Assembly (NCBI GenBank): GCA_963808235.1
Contig: CAWEEQ010000004.1
Span: 1,696,001 to 1,760,000 of the forward strand
DNA: 64,000 bases
Source of the DNA: an uncultured delta proteobacterium
GTDB lineage: Bacteria; Desulfobacterota; Binatia; Binatales; Binataceae
Reading direction: 5' to 3'
A program made the translations under genes and the position numbers. Below are positions 49,663 to 57,024 of this stretch, piece by piece. Positions within the stretch are counted from its first letter, which is position 1. Every line of letters begins with the position of its first letter. A model generated the notes under the pieces. It saw nothing but the letters and a program-made list of their open reading frames with translations. It searched no databases and was not told the origin of the DNA.

Positions 49663-51870
49663 CTACCTGAACGGTACGGCAAACCAGATCACCGCTAACG
49701 GGGGCATCTCGATTGCGATCGAATATGGGAGTCCTTGCCATGGAATCGCGGCTGCTTCCACGCCGCCCATGTTGCCGACGTTAGATCCGCCGTACGCTGA
49801 CGAGTCCGTATTGAGTATCTCGCGATACCATCCGGGACTCGGCACACCGACGCGCAAGCGGCTGCGGGTCACTGGCGAGAAGTTGCAAACGCAAATGACG
49901 CGGCGGCCGCTCGCGGGCGCAATCCGCATGAACGCAATCAGGTTGCTGTCGGCGTCATCCGCTTCGATCCATCTGAAGCCCGCGGGATCGGTGTCGGCCT
50001 CCCACAGTGCCGGCTCGTCGCGATAGATGCGATTCAAGTCGCGCACCAGGAGTTGGATCTCGCGATGGTCGGGATAATCGAGCAGGTTCCAGTCGAGGCT
50101 CGAGTCGTGATCCCACTCTTTCCACTGGCCGATCTCTTCACCCATGAAAATAAGTTTCTTGCCCGAGCGCGCCCACATGTAAGCAAACAGCGCGCGCTGA
50201 TTTGCGAACTGGCGCCATCGGTCGCCGGGCATCTTCGAGAGCAGCGCGCGCTTGCCGTGCACGACCTCGTCATGCGACAGCGGCAGCACGAAGTTTTCAC
50301 TCCACGCGTAGAGGAGGCCGAAAGTGAGATCGCGATGATGAAATTTGCGATAGATCGGATCGAGCGAGAAATACTCCAGCGTGTCGTGCATCCATCCCAT
50401 GTCCCACTTGAAGCCGAATCCCAGCCCGCCCATGAATACCGGTCGGCTGACTCCAGACCACGCGGTGGATTCCTCGGCGATCATCATGATGCCCGGATTC
50501 AGGCGATACACGTCCTGGTTGAGCTTTTTGATAAACGAGATCGCTTCGATATTTTCGCGTCCGCCAAAGACGTTCGGAATCCACTGGCCCTCGCGCCGCG
50601 CGTAGTCGAGATAGATCATCGAGGCGACTGCGTCCACGCGCAGCCCGTCGGCGTGGAACTCGCCCAGCCAGTAGAGCGCGCTGGCAGTCAGGAAATTGCG
50701 CACCTCGGCGCGCCCGTAGTTGAAAATGTAGGTGCCCCACTCAGGATGATCGCCCTGGCGCGGATCCGCGTGCTCGAAGAGCGCGGTTCCGTCAAAACGT
50801 CCAAGGCTGAATTCGTCCTTTGGAAAGTGCGCCGGGACCCAGTCGAGAATCACCCCGATGCCGCGCCGATGCATCTCGTCGATCAGGTAGCGCAAGTCGT
50901 CGGGGCTGCCGTAGCGAGCCGTCGGCGCGAAGTAACCGCTGACCTGGTAACCCCACGAGCCGCTGAACGGATGCTCCATAATCGGCATGAACTCGACGTG
51001 AGTGAATCCCATTCGGGTCACGTAGTCGCCGAGGATCGGCGCCATCTCGCGATACGAGAGCGGCCGATGATTCTCCTCTGGCACGCGGCGCCAGGAGCCA
51101 AGATGAACCTCGTAAATCGAGATGGGAGCTTTGATCCATTCGCGGCGCGCCCGCTCTGCGAGCCAGTCCGCGTCGTGAAACTGGTAGCTTGATTTGTACA
51201 CGACCGCGGCCGTCGCCGGCGGCGCTTCCATCGACTGCGCGAACGGATCGCTCTTCAGCAGAAGCCCGCCGTCGCGGGTGCGTATTTCGTATTTGTATTT
51301 GAATCCCGCGCCGACCCCGGGAATGAACAGCTCCCAGACCCCGGTGCTTCCGAGCGTGCGCATCATGTGGATCCGGCCGTCCCATTGGTTGAAGTCGCCG
51401 ACCACGCTGACTCCGCGCGCGTTGGGCGCCCAGACCGCGAATGACACGCCGGAGATCCCTTCGACCTGGCGCAAGTGCGAGCCCAGCTTGTCGTAAACGC
51501 GATCGTCCTTCTGTTCGCCCCACAGATAAATATCCAGATCGCCCAGCGTCGGCATGAACGAATAAGGATCGTGGATCGTGATCGATGCGCCGTCGGGATA
51601 GTGAATCGTAAGCTGATAGGGGAAGACTTTCGTGCGTCCATCGACCACCCCTTCGAACAGCCCGGCCGGGTCGCTCATCCGCATCGGTCGCGGCGGTTCA
51701 CCCTCGATCAGCAGCTCAATCCGCGAGGCCGCGGGCCGAAACGCACGCACCACAACGCGCTTGCCCTCGGGATGCGCGCCGAGAAGCGAATGAGGATCGT
51801 GATGCTGCAGCGCGAGCAGGCGTTCCAGGTCTCCGCGCGGCGCTGGTGATGAGCGAGTTTCCGCCTTCAT
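49663..51870 (-). CDS. glgB: 1,4-alpha-glucan branching enzyme
   Basis: FAVWAPNA, YEVHLGSW, DWVPAHF, RVDAVASM, LSHDEVVHGK. Confidence 0.97.
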   Translation of the reverse strand: MKAETRSSPAPRGDLERLLALQHHDPHSLLGAHPEGKRVVVRAFRPAASRIELLIEGEPPRPMRMSDPAGLFEGVVDGRTKVFPYQLTIHYPDGASITIHDPYSFMPTLGDLDIYLWGEQKDDRVYDKLGSHLRQVEGISGVSFAVWAPNARGVSVVGDFNQWDGRIHMMRTLGSTGVWELFIPGVGAGFKYKYEIRTRDGGLLLKSDPFAQSMEAPPATAAVVYKSSYQFHDADWLAERARREWIKAPISIYEVHLGSWRRVPEENHRPLSYREMAPILGDYVTRMGFTHVEFMPIMEHPFSGSWGYQVSGYFAPTARYGSPDDLRYLIDEMHRRGIGVILDWVPAHFPKDEFSLGRFDGTALFEHADPRQGDHPEWGTYIFNYGRAEVRNFLTASALYWLGEFHADGLRVDAVASMIYLDYARREGQWIPNVFGGRENIEAISFIKKLNQDVYRLNPGIMMIAEESTAWSGVSRPVFMGGLGFGFKWDMGWMHDTLEYFSLDPIYRKFHHRDLTFGLLYAWSENFVLPLSHDEVVHGKRALLSKMPGDRWRQFANQRALFAYMWARSGKKLIFMGEEIGQWKEWDHDSSLDWNLLDYPDHREIQLLVRDLNRIYRDEPALWEADTDPAGFRWIEADDADSNLIAFMRIAPASGRRVICVCNFSPVTRSRLRVGVPSPGWYREILNTDSSAYGGSNVGNMGGVEAAAIPWQGLPYSIAIEMPPLAVIWFAVPFR

Positions 51871-51923
51871 TTCCTACTTCAAAGTCTAAACGATAGATTC
51901 AATCCGCGCGAACCGATCCTCTT

Positions 51924-51951
51924 TAGTGGCACGGGCGTCCCTGCCCGTGAT
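51924..51951. repeat. REP-like palindrome, family 2, copy 1
   Basis: TAGTGGCACGGGCGTCCCTGCCCGTGAT, identical to 62020-62047. Confidence 0.85.
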
Positions 51952-51964
51952 AAATGCGAACACG

Positions 51965-53206
51965 ATGGCATCGACGCCGAACCAATCTCCAGCGAACGCA
52001 ATAATCGATCCATTAATGGGCCAGCTCGAGGTGCTCGAGCCGGGAATCGCGATGTTTCACGGATTTGCGAATGTCGCGTTCGCGTACGGGCGCGGCGAGA
52101 TGATCGTCGTCGATACCAGTTCGCGGCAGATGGGCCCAATCGCGGTGCGCGCGATTCGCGAGGTCAGCCAGGAACCGTTCGCGTTCCTGGTCTATACGCA
52201 TGGGCATGGCGATCACGCTTTCGGCACCGAGGCGTTTATCACCGACGCGCTCTCGCGCGGCCATGCGCGGCCCAGAATCTGGGCGCACGAGGACGTGACC
52301 GCTCGCTTCAGGCGCTACGCGCTCACCCGCCAATGGCAGGCGCATATCAACCGCCTCCAGTTCGGCACGATGTTGCGGCTCGACGATATGTTCAGCGAGA
52401 AGTCATTCAGTTATCCAGACCTCGTATATCGCAACACGCAATTTCTTGACCTGCTCGGCGAGCCGGTGGAATTGCATCACGCGATGGGCGAGACGGACGA
52501 TGCGACGTGGGTCTGGATGCCGACCCGGAAACTCGCGATGGTCGGCGATCTGATCGTCTCTTCGATGCCGAACACTGGCAATCCGAACAAGGTGCAACGC
52601 TACACGCTCGAGTGGGCGCAAGCGCTCGAAGCGATCGCTAAATGCGCTCCACGCATTGTGCTGCCGGGACACGGGCCGGCATATCGCGGTGAAGAGCTAT
52701 GCGACGAAGTGCTCCGCGAAACGGCGCGCGCGCTCAGAATCATCCACGACGAAGTCGTGCGACGCCTAAACGCCGGCGAATGGCCGGTAGATATAATTGA
52801 AGCCGATATTTCGTTACCCGCCGATCTCGCCGCGAAACCATACCTGCGGCCAATCTACGGATGCGTCCCGTTCGTAGTGCGCGACGTTATCCGACGCTAC
52901 GCAGGATGGTGGTCCGGCGAGCCGTCGCAGATGTTTCCGGCATCGCGCAAGGATCACGGCGGTGACTTGGTCGCGCTATGCGGCCGCGACGCGATGCTCG
53001 CAAAGGCCCGCGCGCTGAAGGACGAAGGCCAGTTGAAGCGCGCGCTAGCGATCGCGGAGATCGCGCTGGACGCTGATTCATCCGACAAGGATGCGGCGGT
53101 TCTAAACGCAGAAATCCTCGAAGCGATGGCGTCAGCCGAGCAATCGTTCATCGCCCGCAACTTCTTCGCAGGCGCAGCCCGCCAACTCAGAGAGCGTACG
53201 AAATAG
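51965..53206 (+). CDS. Alkyl sulfatase-like MBL-fold hydrolase
   Basis: THGHGDH, GETDD, LPGHG, YAGWWSG dimerisation region. Confidence 0.88.
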   Translation: MASTPNQSPANAIIDPLMGQLEVLEPGIAMFHGFANVAFAYGRGEMIVVDTSSRQMGPIAVRAIREVSQEPFAFLVYTHGHGDHAFGTEAFITDALSRGHARPRIWAHEDVTARFRRYALTRQWQAHINRLQFGTMLRLDDMFSEKSFSYPDLVYRNTQFLDLLGEPVELHHAMGETDDATWVWMPTRKLAMVGDLIVSSMPNTGNPNKVQRYTLEWAQALEAIAKCAPRIVLPGHGPAYRGEELCDEVLRETARALRIIHDEVVRRLNAGEWPVDIIEADISLPADLAAKPYLRPIYGCVPFVVRDVIRRYAGWWSGEPSQMFPASRKDHGGDLVALCGRDAMLAKARALKDEGQLKRALAIAEIALDADSSDKDAAVLNAEILEAMASAEQSFIARNFFAGAARQLRERTK

Positions 53207-53235
53207 CTCAAGCTACATTTCTGGCGCGTCTTTAA

Positions 53236-53741
53236 TCATTGTGTCATCCCGAGCGAAGCCGAGGGACCCCGGATCTTTCTCGACGCCGATCACTTCGACC
53301 CCGCTTAAGGCGCGCGGAGCCGAGCAGCTCCGAATCCGTTGCGTCACTCGGAGCTCAAACCAGCCCATGCCGGATTCATCGATTCGATCAGTAATTTCTG
53401 CCGCTTCTTTTCATTGTGTCATCCCGAGCGAAGCCGAGGGACCCCGAATCTTTCTCGACGCCGATCACTTCGACCCCGCTTAGGGCCCGCGGAGCCGAGC
53501 AGCTCCGAATCCGTTGCGTCACTCGGAGCTCAAATCATCCCACTCGGGATTCATCGATTCGATCAGTAATTTCTGCCGCTTCTTTTCATTGTGTCATCCC
53601 GAGCGAAGCCGAGGGACCCCGAATCTTTCTCGACGCCGATCACTTCGACCCCGCTTAAGGCGCGCGGAGCCGAGCAGCTCCGAATCCGTTGCGTCACTCG
53701 GAGCTCAAATCATCCCACTCGGGATTCATCGATTCGATCAG
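53236..53741. repeat. Left arm: three 175-bp tandem units (IR + last 48 bp of nuclease gene + flank-like junction)
   Basis: Units start at 53236, 53411 and 53586 with TCATTGTGTCATCCCGAGCGAAGCCGAGGGACCCC. Confidence 0.95.
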
Positions 53742-53984
53742 CTTGATTTTCTTCGCACGCGTCCAATTCTTCAGTTGCTTTTCGCGCGAGATAGCTGCGG
53801 ATGCATCCGCGAATTCTTCGAACCAGACTAGCCGAGAAATGTTGTAGGTGGCGGTGAACCCAGGCGTCACCTTGATCCGATGCTCATTCATGCGCCGGGC
53901 CAGATCGTTCGTTACTCCGATGTAGATGGTGCGCGATGGGCTCGCGGCGATGTATACGAAGAAGGAGGAGCGTGCTTTGCCCAT
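53694..53984 (-). CDS. Stand-alone GIY-YIG family nuclease
   Basis: FVYI...IYIGVTNDLARRMNEH...AISREKQLKNWTRAKKIKLIESMNPEWDDL; conserved Tyr, Arg, His and Glu present. Confidence 0.95.
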   Translation of the reverse strand: MGKARSSFFVYIAASPSRTIYIGVTNDLARRMNEHRIKVTPGFTATYNISRLVWFEEFADASAAISREKQLKNWTRAKKIKLIESMNPEWDDLSSE

Positions 53985-53996
53985 AGGCAGCTCGGC

Positions 53997-54194
53997 TCAG
54001 CGTGCCCCAAGCGAGGCCGAGGTGGCCGGCGTCGAGAAAGATCCGGGGTCCCTCGGCTGCGCTCGGGATGACACAAAGAAATGACACCGAAATAATGCGA
54101 TGCGCCGGGCTAGATCGTTCGTAACTCCGATGTAGATGGTACGCGATGGGCTCGCGGCGATGTATACGAAGAAGGAGGAGCGTGCTTTACCCAT
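53997..54194 (-). pseudogene. Truncated GIY-YIG copy (31 N-terminal residues plus repeat-derived tail)
   Basis: MGKARSSFFVYIAASPSRTIYIGVTNDLARR then diverges; lacks the conserved His and Glu. Confidence 0.7.
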
Positions 54195-54206
54195 AGGCAG
54201 CTCGGC

Positions 54207-54404
54207 TCAGCGTGCCCCAAGCGAGGCCGAGGTGGCCGGCGTCGAGAAAGATCCGGGGTCCCTCGGCTGCGCTCGGGATGACACAAAGAAATGACACCGA
54301 AATAACGCGATGCGCCGCGCCAAATCGTTCGTTACTCCGATGTAGATGGTGCGCGATGGGCTCGCGGCAATGTATACGAAGAAGGAGGAGCGTGCTTTAC
54401 CCAT
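54207..54404 (-). pseudogene. Second truncated GIY-YIG copy with the same 65-aa translation
   Basis: Same peptide as 53997-54194 despite 7 nucleotide differences. Confidence 0.7.
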
Positions 54405-54484
54405 AGGCAGCTCGGCTCAGCGTGCCCCAAGCGAGGCCGAGGTGGCCGGCGTCGAGAAAGATCCGGGGTCCCTCGGCTTCGCTC

Positions 54485-54577
54485 GGGATGACACAAAAAT
54501 AACTCGGGATGATACAAAGATGAGATGACACAAAGATCAAATGACACAAAGATGAAGTGATACACAAAGATGAAGTG
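54485..54577. repeat. Decaying short tandem copies of the REP terminus (ATGACACAAA)
   Basis: GGGATGACACAAAAAT, GGGATGATACAAAGAT, GATGACACAAAGAT, ATGACACAAAGATG, ATACACAAAGATG. Confidence 0.85.
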
Positions 54578-54617
54578 GCACGGAAATAACGCGCGCGTGA
54601 GAAACAACGGAAAAAAT

Positions 54618-56885
<2,268 letters not shown>

Positions 56886-56968
56886 GATGAGCTACCCATC
56901 TTACCAGCTTTTGATTTCGTGCCGAATGCCCACGGTCTTGCGCTCATTTTGTGGGCTCCGTAGATGCC

Positions 56969-57024
56969 TGTGGATAAGTGTATCTGGCAGCCGAAGTCCG
57001 ACACTTCAACCCTACTTATCCACA
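56969..57024. promoter_or_regulatory. Two perfect, inverted DnaA boxes upstream of uvrB
   Basis: TGTGGATAA at 56969-56977 and TTATCCACA at 57016-57024. Confidence 0.75.

Follow-up and report, generated by a model that had tools for sequence, protein, structure and literature searches.

Small GIY-YIG nucleases that recognize hairpin-forming repeats as single-stranded DNA (ssDNA) are known from Neisseria meningitidis, where the single-domain, 94-residue enzyme SsnA binds the dRS3-derived NTS hairpin as ssDNA only, and on one strand only (Chenal et al. 2025, Nat Commun 16:2388; PMC11893778, cited here and below for what its accessible parts state). SsnA cuts a few nucleotides upstream of the hairpin, leaves double-stranded DNA (dsDNA) and RNA untouched and lowers transformation by NTS-bearing DNA; its demonstrated role in Neisseria is the restriction of incoming transforming ssDNA (PMC11893778). 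Here we describe a locus of similar outline in a soil bacterium, an uncultured delta proteobacterium whose genome of 4.59 Mb (60% G+C) is assembled in four contigs. The locus lies in the stretch of 64,000 nucleotides that we analyzed (the window, positions 1696001-1760000 of contig C4) and consists of a 96-residue GIY-YIG nuclease gene between inverted arms that carry tagged hairpins. From the combined analyses below, it very probably encodes an Ssn-family ssDNA nuclease together with its cognate, Ssn-related hairpins.

Beyond SsnA itself, a related motif called SRM flanks 71% of SsnA homologues and stands on both sides in 42%, and the gene is found in 81% of the genomes with more than 200 SRMs (PMC11893778). 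All four homologues that were purified bound and cut their own repeat, again only as ssDNA and a few nucleotides upstream, with recognition depending on sequence as well as structure. The catalytic tyrosines of the meningococcal enzyme are Y6 and Y17, and E64 binds the cofactor. Its authors liken the NTS-ssnA-NTS layout to insertion sequences (IS) and to the elements formed by repetitive extragenic palindromes (REPs) and REP-associated tyrosine transposases (RAYTs), and their Discussion contains a domestication hypothesis. Supplementary Data 4 of the same article includes an SsnA/cd10448 homologue of Granulicella rosea and gives an SRM enrichment of only 1.06-1.67-fold in four gene-bearing acidobacterial genomes, which suggests that the cognate motif was probably missed in such phyla.

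REPtrons are a second system to which the locus can be compared. Their RAYT genes, which encode Y1 transposases of the HUH type, are said to be flanked by GTAG-tagged REPs, the names attached to this being Nunvar 2010 and Ton-Hoang 2012. As far as the accessible descriptions go, REPtrons and the window locus have in common a single-copy nuclease gene between inverted REPs, one gene per REP family and largely vertical inheritance, as well as REPs that occur as singlets, doublets and clusters and are recognized as ssDNA hairpins with an unpaired 5' tag. In contrast to the HUH tyrosine transposase, however, a GIY-YIG hydrolase forms no covalent intermediate and thus has no intrinsic strand transfer, and the tag is TGTC at the window locus rather than GTAG.

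The third comparison is with the CGTC-tagged REPs defined by Di Nocera, De Gregorio, and Rocco (2013, BMC Genomics 14:522; PMC3733652). In the accessible parts of that article, many of these repeats carry TGTC as their tag, A pairs with T at the first two positions of the stem, which comprises 8-9 bp and closes on a loop of 4-5 nucleotides, and a CCA tail follows. Dimers form in opposite orientation, and Neisseria dRS3 corresponds to family CGTC-1. These REPs are said there to lack a dedicated transposase, and GIY-YIG proteins go unmentioned in the same parts of the article.

The nuclease gene and its hairpin-bearing arms

The nuclease gene occupies positions 53694..53984 on the minus strand. 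A sequence-only reading of the window had described it as a stand-alone 96-codon GIY-YIG gene, and the open reading frame (ORF) list and Pfam agree: PF01541 is the sole domain (residues 8-80, E 1.5e-14), with no further family above its cut-off. The same reading had placed imperfect inverted repeats at 53589-53680 and 53985-54076, abutting the start codon and ending 13 nucleotides from the stop codon. Our repeat search recovers them as arms of 98 nucleotides that are 86% complementary (53581-53678 and 53987-54084), and their distances to the gene are as described. The left arm nearest the gene (53581..53693, plus strand) is a repeat of about 95 nucleotides with a tagged hairpin at its distal 5' end (core 53590-53622) and a second small hairpin close to the stop of the nuclease gene. 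The right arm (53985..54084, minus strand; core 54043-54075) is an inverted copy that touches the start codon, so that the tagged core forms the gene-distal end of each arm. Also borne out are the position of the gene between convergent neighbors, the lack of transposase, integrase or reverse transcriptase ORFs within 51000-57000 and the absence of a visible target-site duplication at the locus.

Four GIY-YIG paralogs that are 57-67% identical are encoded in this genome, and each of them stands between inverted hairpins that carry the tag on the side away from the gene and belong to a sequence variant specific to that paralog. No Y1/RAYT gene (PF01797) was found in the whole genome by a search that did give matches in control genomes. 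Around paralog 3 (C4:2935137-2936330), at least eight copies of its own hairpin variant stand within 1.2 kb. A second arm with a copy of its 5' leader lies directly upstream of the next gene there, from which the arm might carry promoter activity.

The protein itself has little beyond its catalytic fold. An alignment of 15 sequences shows no variation at residues Y11, Y21, R30/R31, E68, and N87, of which Y11, Y21, and E68 match by motif position, without direct alignment, the catalytic Tyr/Tyr/Glu set of Ssn enzymes, single-domain GIY-YIG proteins of about 95 residues as well. An AlphaFold2 model predicts one compact domain (pLDDT 90.3). Foldseek ranks the UPF0213 protein BH0048 first, followed by the Slx1 nuclease domain (root-mean-square deviation 2.4 A, 73 columns, 27% identity), with the N-terminal domain of UvrC lower; the best PDB structure matches are 1zg2, 1ywl, and the Slx1 entry 6seh, and a profile search of PDB sequences returned only two UPF0213 structural-genomics entries. 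The predicted fold is the one shared by the Slx1 nuclease domain and UPF0213/YhbQ-like proteins. Slx1 has an additional domain and depends on Slx4. GIY-YIG homing endonucleases such as I-TevI or the Seg proteins have, besides the catalytic domain, another one for DNA binding, and they cleave the dsDNA of an empty allele. With these homing enzymes the window nuclease has in common the catalytic domain, a small free-standing gene and a patchy distribution, but the 96-residue protein is the catalytic domain only, and the group I intron endonuclease family of NCBIfam (TIGR01453) reaches 17.5 bits where its cut-off is 56. According to the titles of its PDB entries, Slx1 cleaves branched and structured DNA.

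The hairpin of the window, as seen in the outermost left core, combines a TGTC tag, a stem with tandem G.A, a triloop and a C-rich tail. Its class is defined by five Watson-Crick pairs, the conserved tandem G.A, two more pairs and a loop of three nucleotides. It has the TGTC tag, the stem starting A-T and the short C-rich tail in common with CGTC-tagged REPs, whereas the latter, as described in the text of PMC3733652, have an uninterrupted 8-9-bp stem and a 4-5-nucleotide loop in place of five plus two pairs split by G.A around three unpaired nucleotides. Judged from that text without its figures, the G.A class falls outside the four families of CGTC-tagged REPs.

The evidence for a selected structure comes from covariation among 38 distinct instances that were chosen by tag, the two GA steps and the tail C, with no pairing criterion. 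Their stem positions pair in 94.7% of cells versus 82.0% after shuffling, and 47 cells are changed on both sides where shuffling gives 14.1; none of 500 shuffles reached either value, and controls in which the frame was slid pair at only 13-50%. At the outermost pair, 32 of the 38 aligned instances have A-T, and the window variant has an A.C mismatch. The hairpin is under structural selection, a statement that covariation supports and folding energy does not: the whole arm of the window variant folds no better than its shuffles, while stability is evident for the classical 8-bp variant found at locus L042 (-9 kcal/mol, z -4). When hairpins of any sequence with at least 5 bp were counted, they followed the 5-nucleotide tag word in 11% of cases, compared to 11-13% for scrambled words. 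Since G-U pairs fill only 4 of 266 cells and the tandem G.A is asymmetric with respect to its complement, one DNA strand is likely the functional form.

Copies of this hairpin are dispersed over the genome in a number of about 70-95, depending on the method: 38 copies lie within six mismatches of the core, blastn with the arm finds 78 loci, and a 17-nucleotide IUPAC pattern has 69 matches versus none for the reversed-pattern control. By the first four stem letters they fall into classes of 43, 24, 11, 9, and 4 copies that differ from each other in a compensatory manner. A T-rich run stands just 5' of the tag (at least five T in the ten nucleotides upstream in 35 of 42 copies), and a T/C-rich stretch follows the hairpin. 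Doublets in opposite orientation occur among the copies, whose strand ratio is 52:23 without a clean switch on a main contig of weak GC skew. By eye, some copies are preceded by short partial copies of their tag-bearing end; tag fragments were counted upstream of 5 of 42 copies and in 6 of 42 control windows, the latter contaminated by tandem arrays, with a genome expectation of about 1.3%. A telomere-like short G/T-rich repeat, with a small palindrome before it, lies downstream of several copies (C4 near 459400, 2504720, 3025480, and 3027050) and is possibly another mosaic component of the repeat clusters.

Homologous loci and the pairing of gene and repeat

A word-indexed search returned 1280 homologues, and the best 120 of them, which were examined for length and domains, measure 65-136 residues and all but one carry only PF01541. 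When one genome per species was considered, 591 of 600 candidate stretches encoded a relative, and the best 80 loci were kept. They span Acidobacteriota, Chloroflexota, alpha-, delta-, and gammaproteobacteria, cyanobacteria, Firmicutes, Bacteroidota, Ignavibacteriota, lineages of the candidate phyla radiation (CPR) and others. Protein identity across phyla is 50-64% and the closest homologues are acidobacterial; the Granulicella rosea protein (L074) is 58% identical to the window nuclease. No conserved neighbor gene was found in the 80 loci, among which the largest non-self cluster comprises three loci.

What does recur at these loci is the hairpin. In 44 of 78 of them, the upstream flank matches the reverse-complemented downstream flank above the 95th percentile of mismatched-locus controls, and the aligned piece is nearly always a tagged hairpin. 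Hairpins were counted on the 75 of the best 80 loci that have full 260-nucleotide flanks. With a strict TGTC motif, inward hairpins were found upstream of 49, downstream of 53, on both sides of 42 and on either side of 60 genes, versus 3/70 and 1/70 in distant control windows. With a looser GTC tag the same counts are 62, 62, 54, and 70, leaving five loci without any inward hairpin, whereas outward hairpins number 26 and 31 with 15 loci having them on both sides, and controls give 3-10 of 68. Flanking inverted tagged hairpins had been named by the sequence-only reading as the thing to look for in homologues, along with a dependence of repeat abundance on the gene and empty sites between the neighboring genes in relatives; the first is thus present at most loci, and the other two are taken up below.

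Among 124 locus hairpins the tag is TGTC in 99 and CGTC in 18, the stem starts with AT in 111, and 31 have stems of 8-9 bp. Hairpins of classical geometry adjoin homologues in other phyla. The tag lies at a median distance of 76 nucleotides from the start codon and 63 from the stop codon. Three other genomes have 4-5 paralogs, and 11 of their 14 loci carry hairpins on both sides, one on one side and two none; by inspection, a locus has two matching arms, and these differ from the arms of the other paralogs in the same genome.

Gene and repeat also go together when whole genomes are compared. Within the genus, a strong match to the gene was found in 15 of 18 genomes (all except G004, G013, and G014), and motif counts range from 0 to 81; these tallies include the unpublished genome G018 with three genes and no motif by this pattern. 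In a sample of 151 alphaproteobacterial genomes, repeats were found with a covariance model of the classical hairpin (a count of 47 meaning at least 47), and the gene is present in 47 genomes. Both gene and repeat occur in 31 of them (30 without the unpublished G368), the repeat only in 10, the gene only in 16 and neither in 94, which amounts to an odds ratio of 18; the gene is found in 26 of 33 genomes with at least five matches but in 21 of 118 others. Of 301 genomes from the host's own phylum, 74 carry the gene at E <= 1e-15, namely 18 of the 31 with at least five copies of the gapped pattern versus 56 of the 270 others (odds ratio 5.3). In both samples, repeat-rich genomes thus mostly carry the gene.

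These comparisons support, at the level of sequence, that the nuclease is the predicted cognate enzyme of the TGTC-tagged hairpins around it. The placement in the Ssn family draws on the size, domain, and catalytic residues of the protein and on the bracketing of the gene by inverted, oriented hairpin repeats in which the 5' tag is unpaired and a C follows the stem. Further shared features are the tens to hundreds of additional genomic copies, the presence of the gene in most repeat-rich genomes and a repeat variant specific to each homologue. The locus differs from described Ssn systems in its host, a soil bacterium instead of Neisseria or Wolbachia, and in having arms of about 95 nucleotides with a second hairpin, triplicated arms with gene-end fragments and four paralogs.

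Several points weigh against this assignment. By a hand check at three offsets, the window hairpin misses the published degenerate SRM string, having A where C, G, or T is required or failing earlier, and since recognition is sequence-dependent according to the accessible text of PMC11893778, activity on this variant cannot be assumed. Nearest-neighbor folding gives the window hairpin as DNA only -2.2 kcal/mol (z +1.4). Among motif-rich genomes, there is no detectable gene in G013 (35 copies, 82% complete), G324 (57 copies), G439, and G455, and conversely 56 and 16 gene-bearing genomes of the own-phylum and alphaproteobacterial samples have few or no motif matches. Related genomes are moreover not independent, so the Fisher p-values of the two samples (3e-12 and 3e-5) overstate the association. 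Looking at five motif-rich genomes without a strong gene match, G195 has a stop-interrupted copy, G288 a fragment, and G053 a divergent copy, while nothing was found in G324 and G013.

If the nuclease works like the four assayed homologues, it would require the strand with the tag to be single-stranded in order to bind the folded hairpin. By analogy, recognition would involve the stem with its A-T and T-A first pairs, the unpaired TGTC tag before it and the C directly behind it, and cleavage would fall a few nucleotides 5' of the tag, in the T-rich stretch outside each arm. In the cell it may serve restriction or modulate recombination of repeat-bearing ssDNA, as in Neisseria; alternatively or additionally, gene and repeats may be a domesticated repeat-nuclease pair.

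With the Ssn system in print since 2025, the window locus confirms rather than founds it, and our counts of hairpin flanks and of gene-repeat pairing closely reproduce those of Chenal et al. 2025. The sequence-only reading had known of no mechanistic description, which that article provides as far as its accessible parts show. Three things are new here. The first is the class of G.A-mismatch hairpins outside the published search string, on the novelty of which the figures of PMC11893778 may bear. When the cognate hairpin belongs to such another class, repeat counts and gene-repeat associations in the phyla concerned are probably underestimated. The second is the triplication of both arms with gene-end fragments. 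The third is that SRMs and CGTC-tagged REPs are the same family of objects. Our literature searches found no link joining these two literatures, and a name search of Chenal et al. 2025 found no citation of the 2013 classification. Several nuclease-hairpin pairs per genome with distinct predicted specificities would also be useful for mining orthogonal ssDNA cutters.

Triplicated arms, site history and rival explanations

The locus holds six hairpin cores instead of the two noted before. On the left, a tandem array of 3 x 175 nucleotides (53236..53760, plus strand; 100/95/88% identity) repeats a T-rich leader, the arm and the last ~49 nucleotides of the gene, with cores at 53240-53272 (outermost) and 53415-53447 in addition to that of the gene-proximal arm (53590-53622). 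Its third unit continues into the intact nuclease gene, and tblastn detects the 3' gene fragment in the array. On the right, 3 x 210 nucleotides (53890..54519, minus strand; 100/98/90% identity) repeat the first ~95 nucleotides of the gene, the arm and a trailer of ~24 nucleotides, with cores at 54463-54495 (outermost), 54253-54285, and 54043-54075. Two truncated 65-codon ORFs in this array (53997-54194 and 54207-54404) repeat the first 31 nuclease residues at 91% identity. Outside the outermost right hairpin, the repeat search finds a degenerate 16-nucleotide tandem repeat (54509..54582) in which the terminus with the tag is copied in part, and the same kind of short-repeat tail adjoins paralog 2.

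Where units of the right array meet, the trailer's end shares a microhomology of five nucleotides with the gene, which fits a microhomology-mediated tandem duplication followed by expansion. Both internal junctions of this array are bridged without mismatch by short-read contigs of X1, either an independent metagenome run or the source one. The left array has no such cover. Positions 53316-53585 and 54504-54611 lie outside the metagenome contigs, which contain no joints or alternative forms of the locus. Among syntenic sites of the genus, triplications occur in the window genome only, and G011 has single arms of ~95 nucleotides; at paralog 4, the arm plus the gene start form a 2-unit duplication. 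Most simply, the triplicated arms are local tandem duplications, and a role of the nuclease in causing them is only hypothetical.

Two more 3-unit arrays with the hairpin repeat lie at C4:1002100-1002831 and C4:1538832-1539261, with units of 283 nucleotides (each a +/- doublet) and 189 nucleotides, such that triplication around hairpin repeats is not unique to the nuclease locus. In contigs of metagenomes X1 and X5 from other places or organisms, left-type and right-type hairpins are joined across only 36-38 unrelated letters, suggesting that short doublets without the gene are common in soil metagenomes.

The site between the sulfatase-like gene and uvrB allows the locus to be followed through the genus. 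A sulfatase orthologue is present in 15 of 18 genomes and adjoins uvrB in 7 of 16 including the window. Four of these seven sites are occupied by the nuclease gene (window, G005, G011, and G007), with orthologues that are 73-76% identical. Sites without the gene, for which the sequence-only reading had proposed to look in relatives, were found in the other three: G013 and G002 have hairpins only, and G004 has neither gene nor hairpin. In the G013 spacer (L096), ~9 nucleotides of the arm's tag-bearing end are joined directly to a complete inverted hairpin, an arrangement that resembles either a minimal doublet or the remnant of a deletion that spared the two termini. The orthologue of G007 (L100) is split into two frames by a 16-nucleotide internal tandem duplication and is likely a pseudogene; 39 motif copies are still present in this genome. 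Among the three intact syntenic orthologues, dN/dS is 0.09-0.16 with dS near saturation. The shared site and this selection indicate that the nuclease gene has long been present and selected at this place, as opposed to having arrived recently. In G005 (L092) only, an extra minus-strand ORF of ~110 codons lies between the sulfatase and nuclease genes.

The sequence-only reading had gone further and proposed a REPtron-like arrangement with a non-HUH nuclease as the cognate enzyme that maintains or spreads TGTC-tagged REPs. The cognate part of the proposal is supported by paralogs that each have their own hairpins, by the inward hairpins at homologous loci, by covarying stems, by the co-occurrence of gene and repeat and by the lack of a Y1/RAYT gene; the maintaining or spreading part is a hypothesis only, here as in the accessible text of PMC11893778. 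In mechanistic terms, the nuclease would nick chromosomal ssDNA at the hairpins, e.g., at replication forks, and repair would copy, duplicate, and spread the repeats. This would add to the Ssn-family explanation without excluding it, and we regard it as possible though not the expected outcome. In its favor are the RAYT REPtron layout with paralog-specific hairpins, the ~70-95 dispersed copies with doublets and other tandem arrays, the triplication of both arms with the 2-unit duplication at paralog 4 and the partial tag-end repeats just outside the tag, which is where Ssn enzymes cut (PMC11893778). Copy numbers from 0 to 81 among congeners, the repeat-rich genomes G195 and G288 with only a broken or fragmentary gene and the CGTC REPs without a dedicated transposase (PMC3733652) point the same way. 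However, GIY-YIG enzymes act by hydrolysis and cannot reseal DNA on their own. Nearly identical long copies dispersed over the genome, as a recent burst would leave them, are absent (similarity among long arms is 75-89%), the gene has kept one syntenic site in four of the seven genomes with this gene order, and the metagenome contigs show no joints or alternative forms.

A bolder extension of the Ssn-family reading takes the triplicated arms, the junction microhomology and the tag-end repeats as in vivo scars of a nuclease that cuts its own chromosomal ssDNA, with Ssn enzymes thereby driving local duplication and the genome-wide proliferation of CGTC/TGTC REPs and with the G.A hairpin as a second recognition mode. 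We consider this conjecture doubtful. If it were true, Ssn would be the dedicated enzyme of CGTC/TGTC-tagged REPs beyond the restriction of incoming DNA, and the G.A recognition mode would escape published searches in Acidobacteriota, Chloroflexota, and others. The triplicated arms are in any case a concrete place to ask whether Ssn enzymes reshape their own chromosome.

It is very unlikely that the gene encodes a housekeeping repair endonuclease of the UvrC/Cho kind that works with nucleotide excision repair, next to hairpins that are ordinary REP-type terminators or regulators. The thought is suggested by the position of the gene, which in the window and in three congeners follows uvrB directly on the same strand, by the likeness of the predicted fold to the nuclease domains of Slx1 and UvrC and by the repair role proposed for three small Caulobacter COG2827 genes, one of them with an SOS box (Martins-Pinheiro et al. 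2007; PMC1839093, in its accessible parts). Yet none of the 80 homologous loci has a conserved neighbor, repair gene or other, and the gene is too patchy (74/301 and 47/151 genomes) and too often multiplied, with 1-5 copies per genome that each have their own hairpin. The hairpins are also orientation-specific and stand at the fixed distances given above, and characterized homologues are inactive on dsDNA (PMC11893778).

Even less probable is a free-standing homing endonuclease, or a conventional transposon with terminal inverted repeats (TIRs), that inserted into existing REPs and has the repeats as its targets. Presence or absence of the gene at one site and its patchy taxonomic spread at 50-64% identity across phyla would be expected of such an element. 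The protein, however, has no DNA-binding or transposase domain, no target-site duplication is seen, and purifying selection acts on the syntenic orthologues, whose divergence is that expected from vertical descent. Homologues leave dsDNA uncut (PMC11893778), and mere target status would not explain why arms match within a locus and differ between paralogs. Finally, that the hairpins act only in RNA, as stabilizers of 5' or 3' untranslated regions (UTRs) or as terminators without any protein-DNA relation, is scarcely credible: many REPs are argued to be transcribed and to lie downstream of genes (PMC3733652) and a T/C-rich stretch does follow the hairpin, but inverted arms put only one arm in sense on any transcript, G-U pairs are scarce (4/266), Rfam has no match on 53100-54700 at E <= 1, promoter and terminator scans gave nothing above chance at the hairpins, and SsnA does not bind RNA (PMC11893778).

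Neighboring genes and an unrelated repeat

PHROGs and PADLOC scans returned no families. The gene to the left of the locus encodes a metallo-beta-lactamase (MBL)-fold protein with an alkyl-sulfatase dimerisation domain by Pfam (51926-53206, plus strand), the sulfatase-like gene referred to above. The gene to the right is uvrB, which encodes a full-length UvrB (54618-56885, minus strand; ORF list and Pfam). The two genes are convergent with the nuclease gene between them, the latter being on the uvrB strand 633 nucleotides downstream of uvrB. Further to the left, the translation of a long minus-strand ORF (49663-51870) looks like a glucan-branching enzyme. A long G+C-rich palindromic repeat, unrelated to the tagged hairpins, lies beside the sulfatase gene in G004 (L099), at the start of the G011 locus (L094) and near position 630700 of C4.

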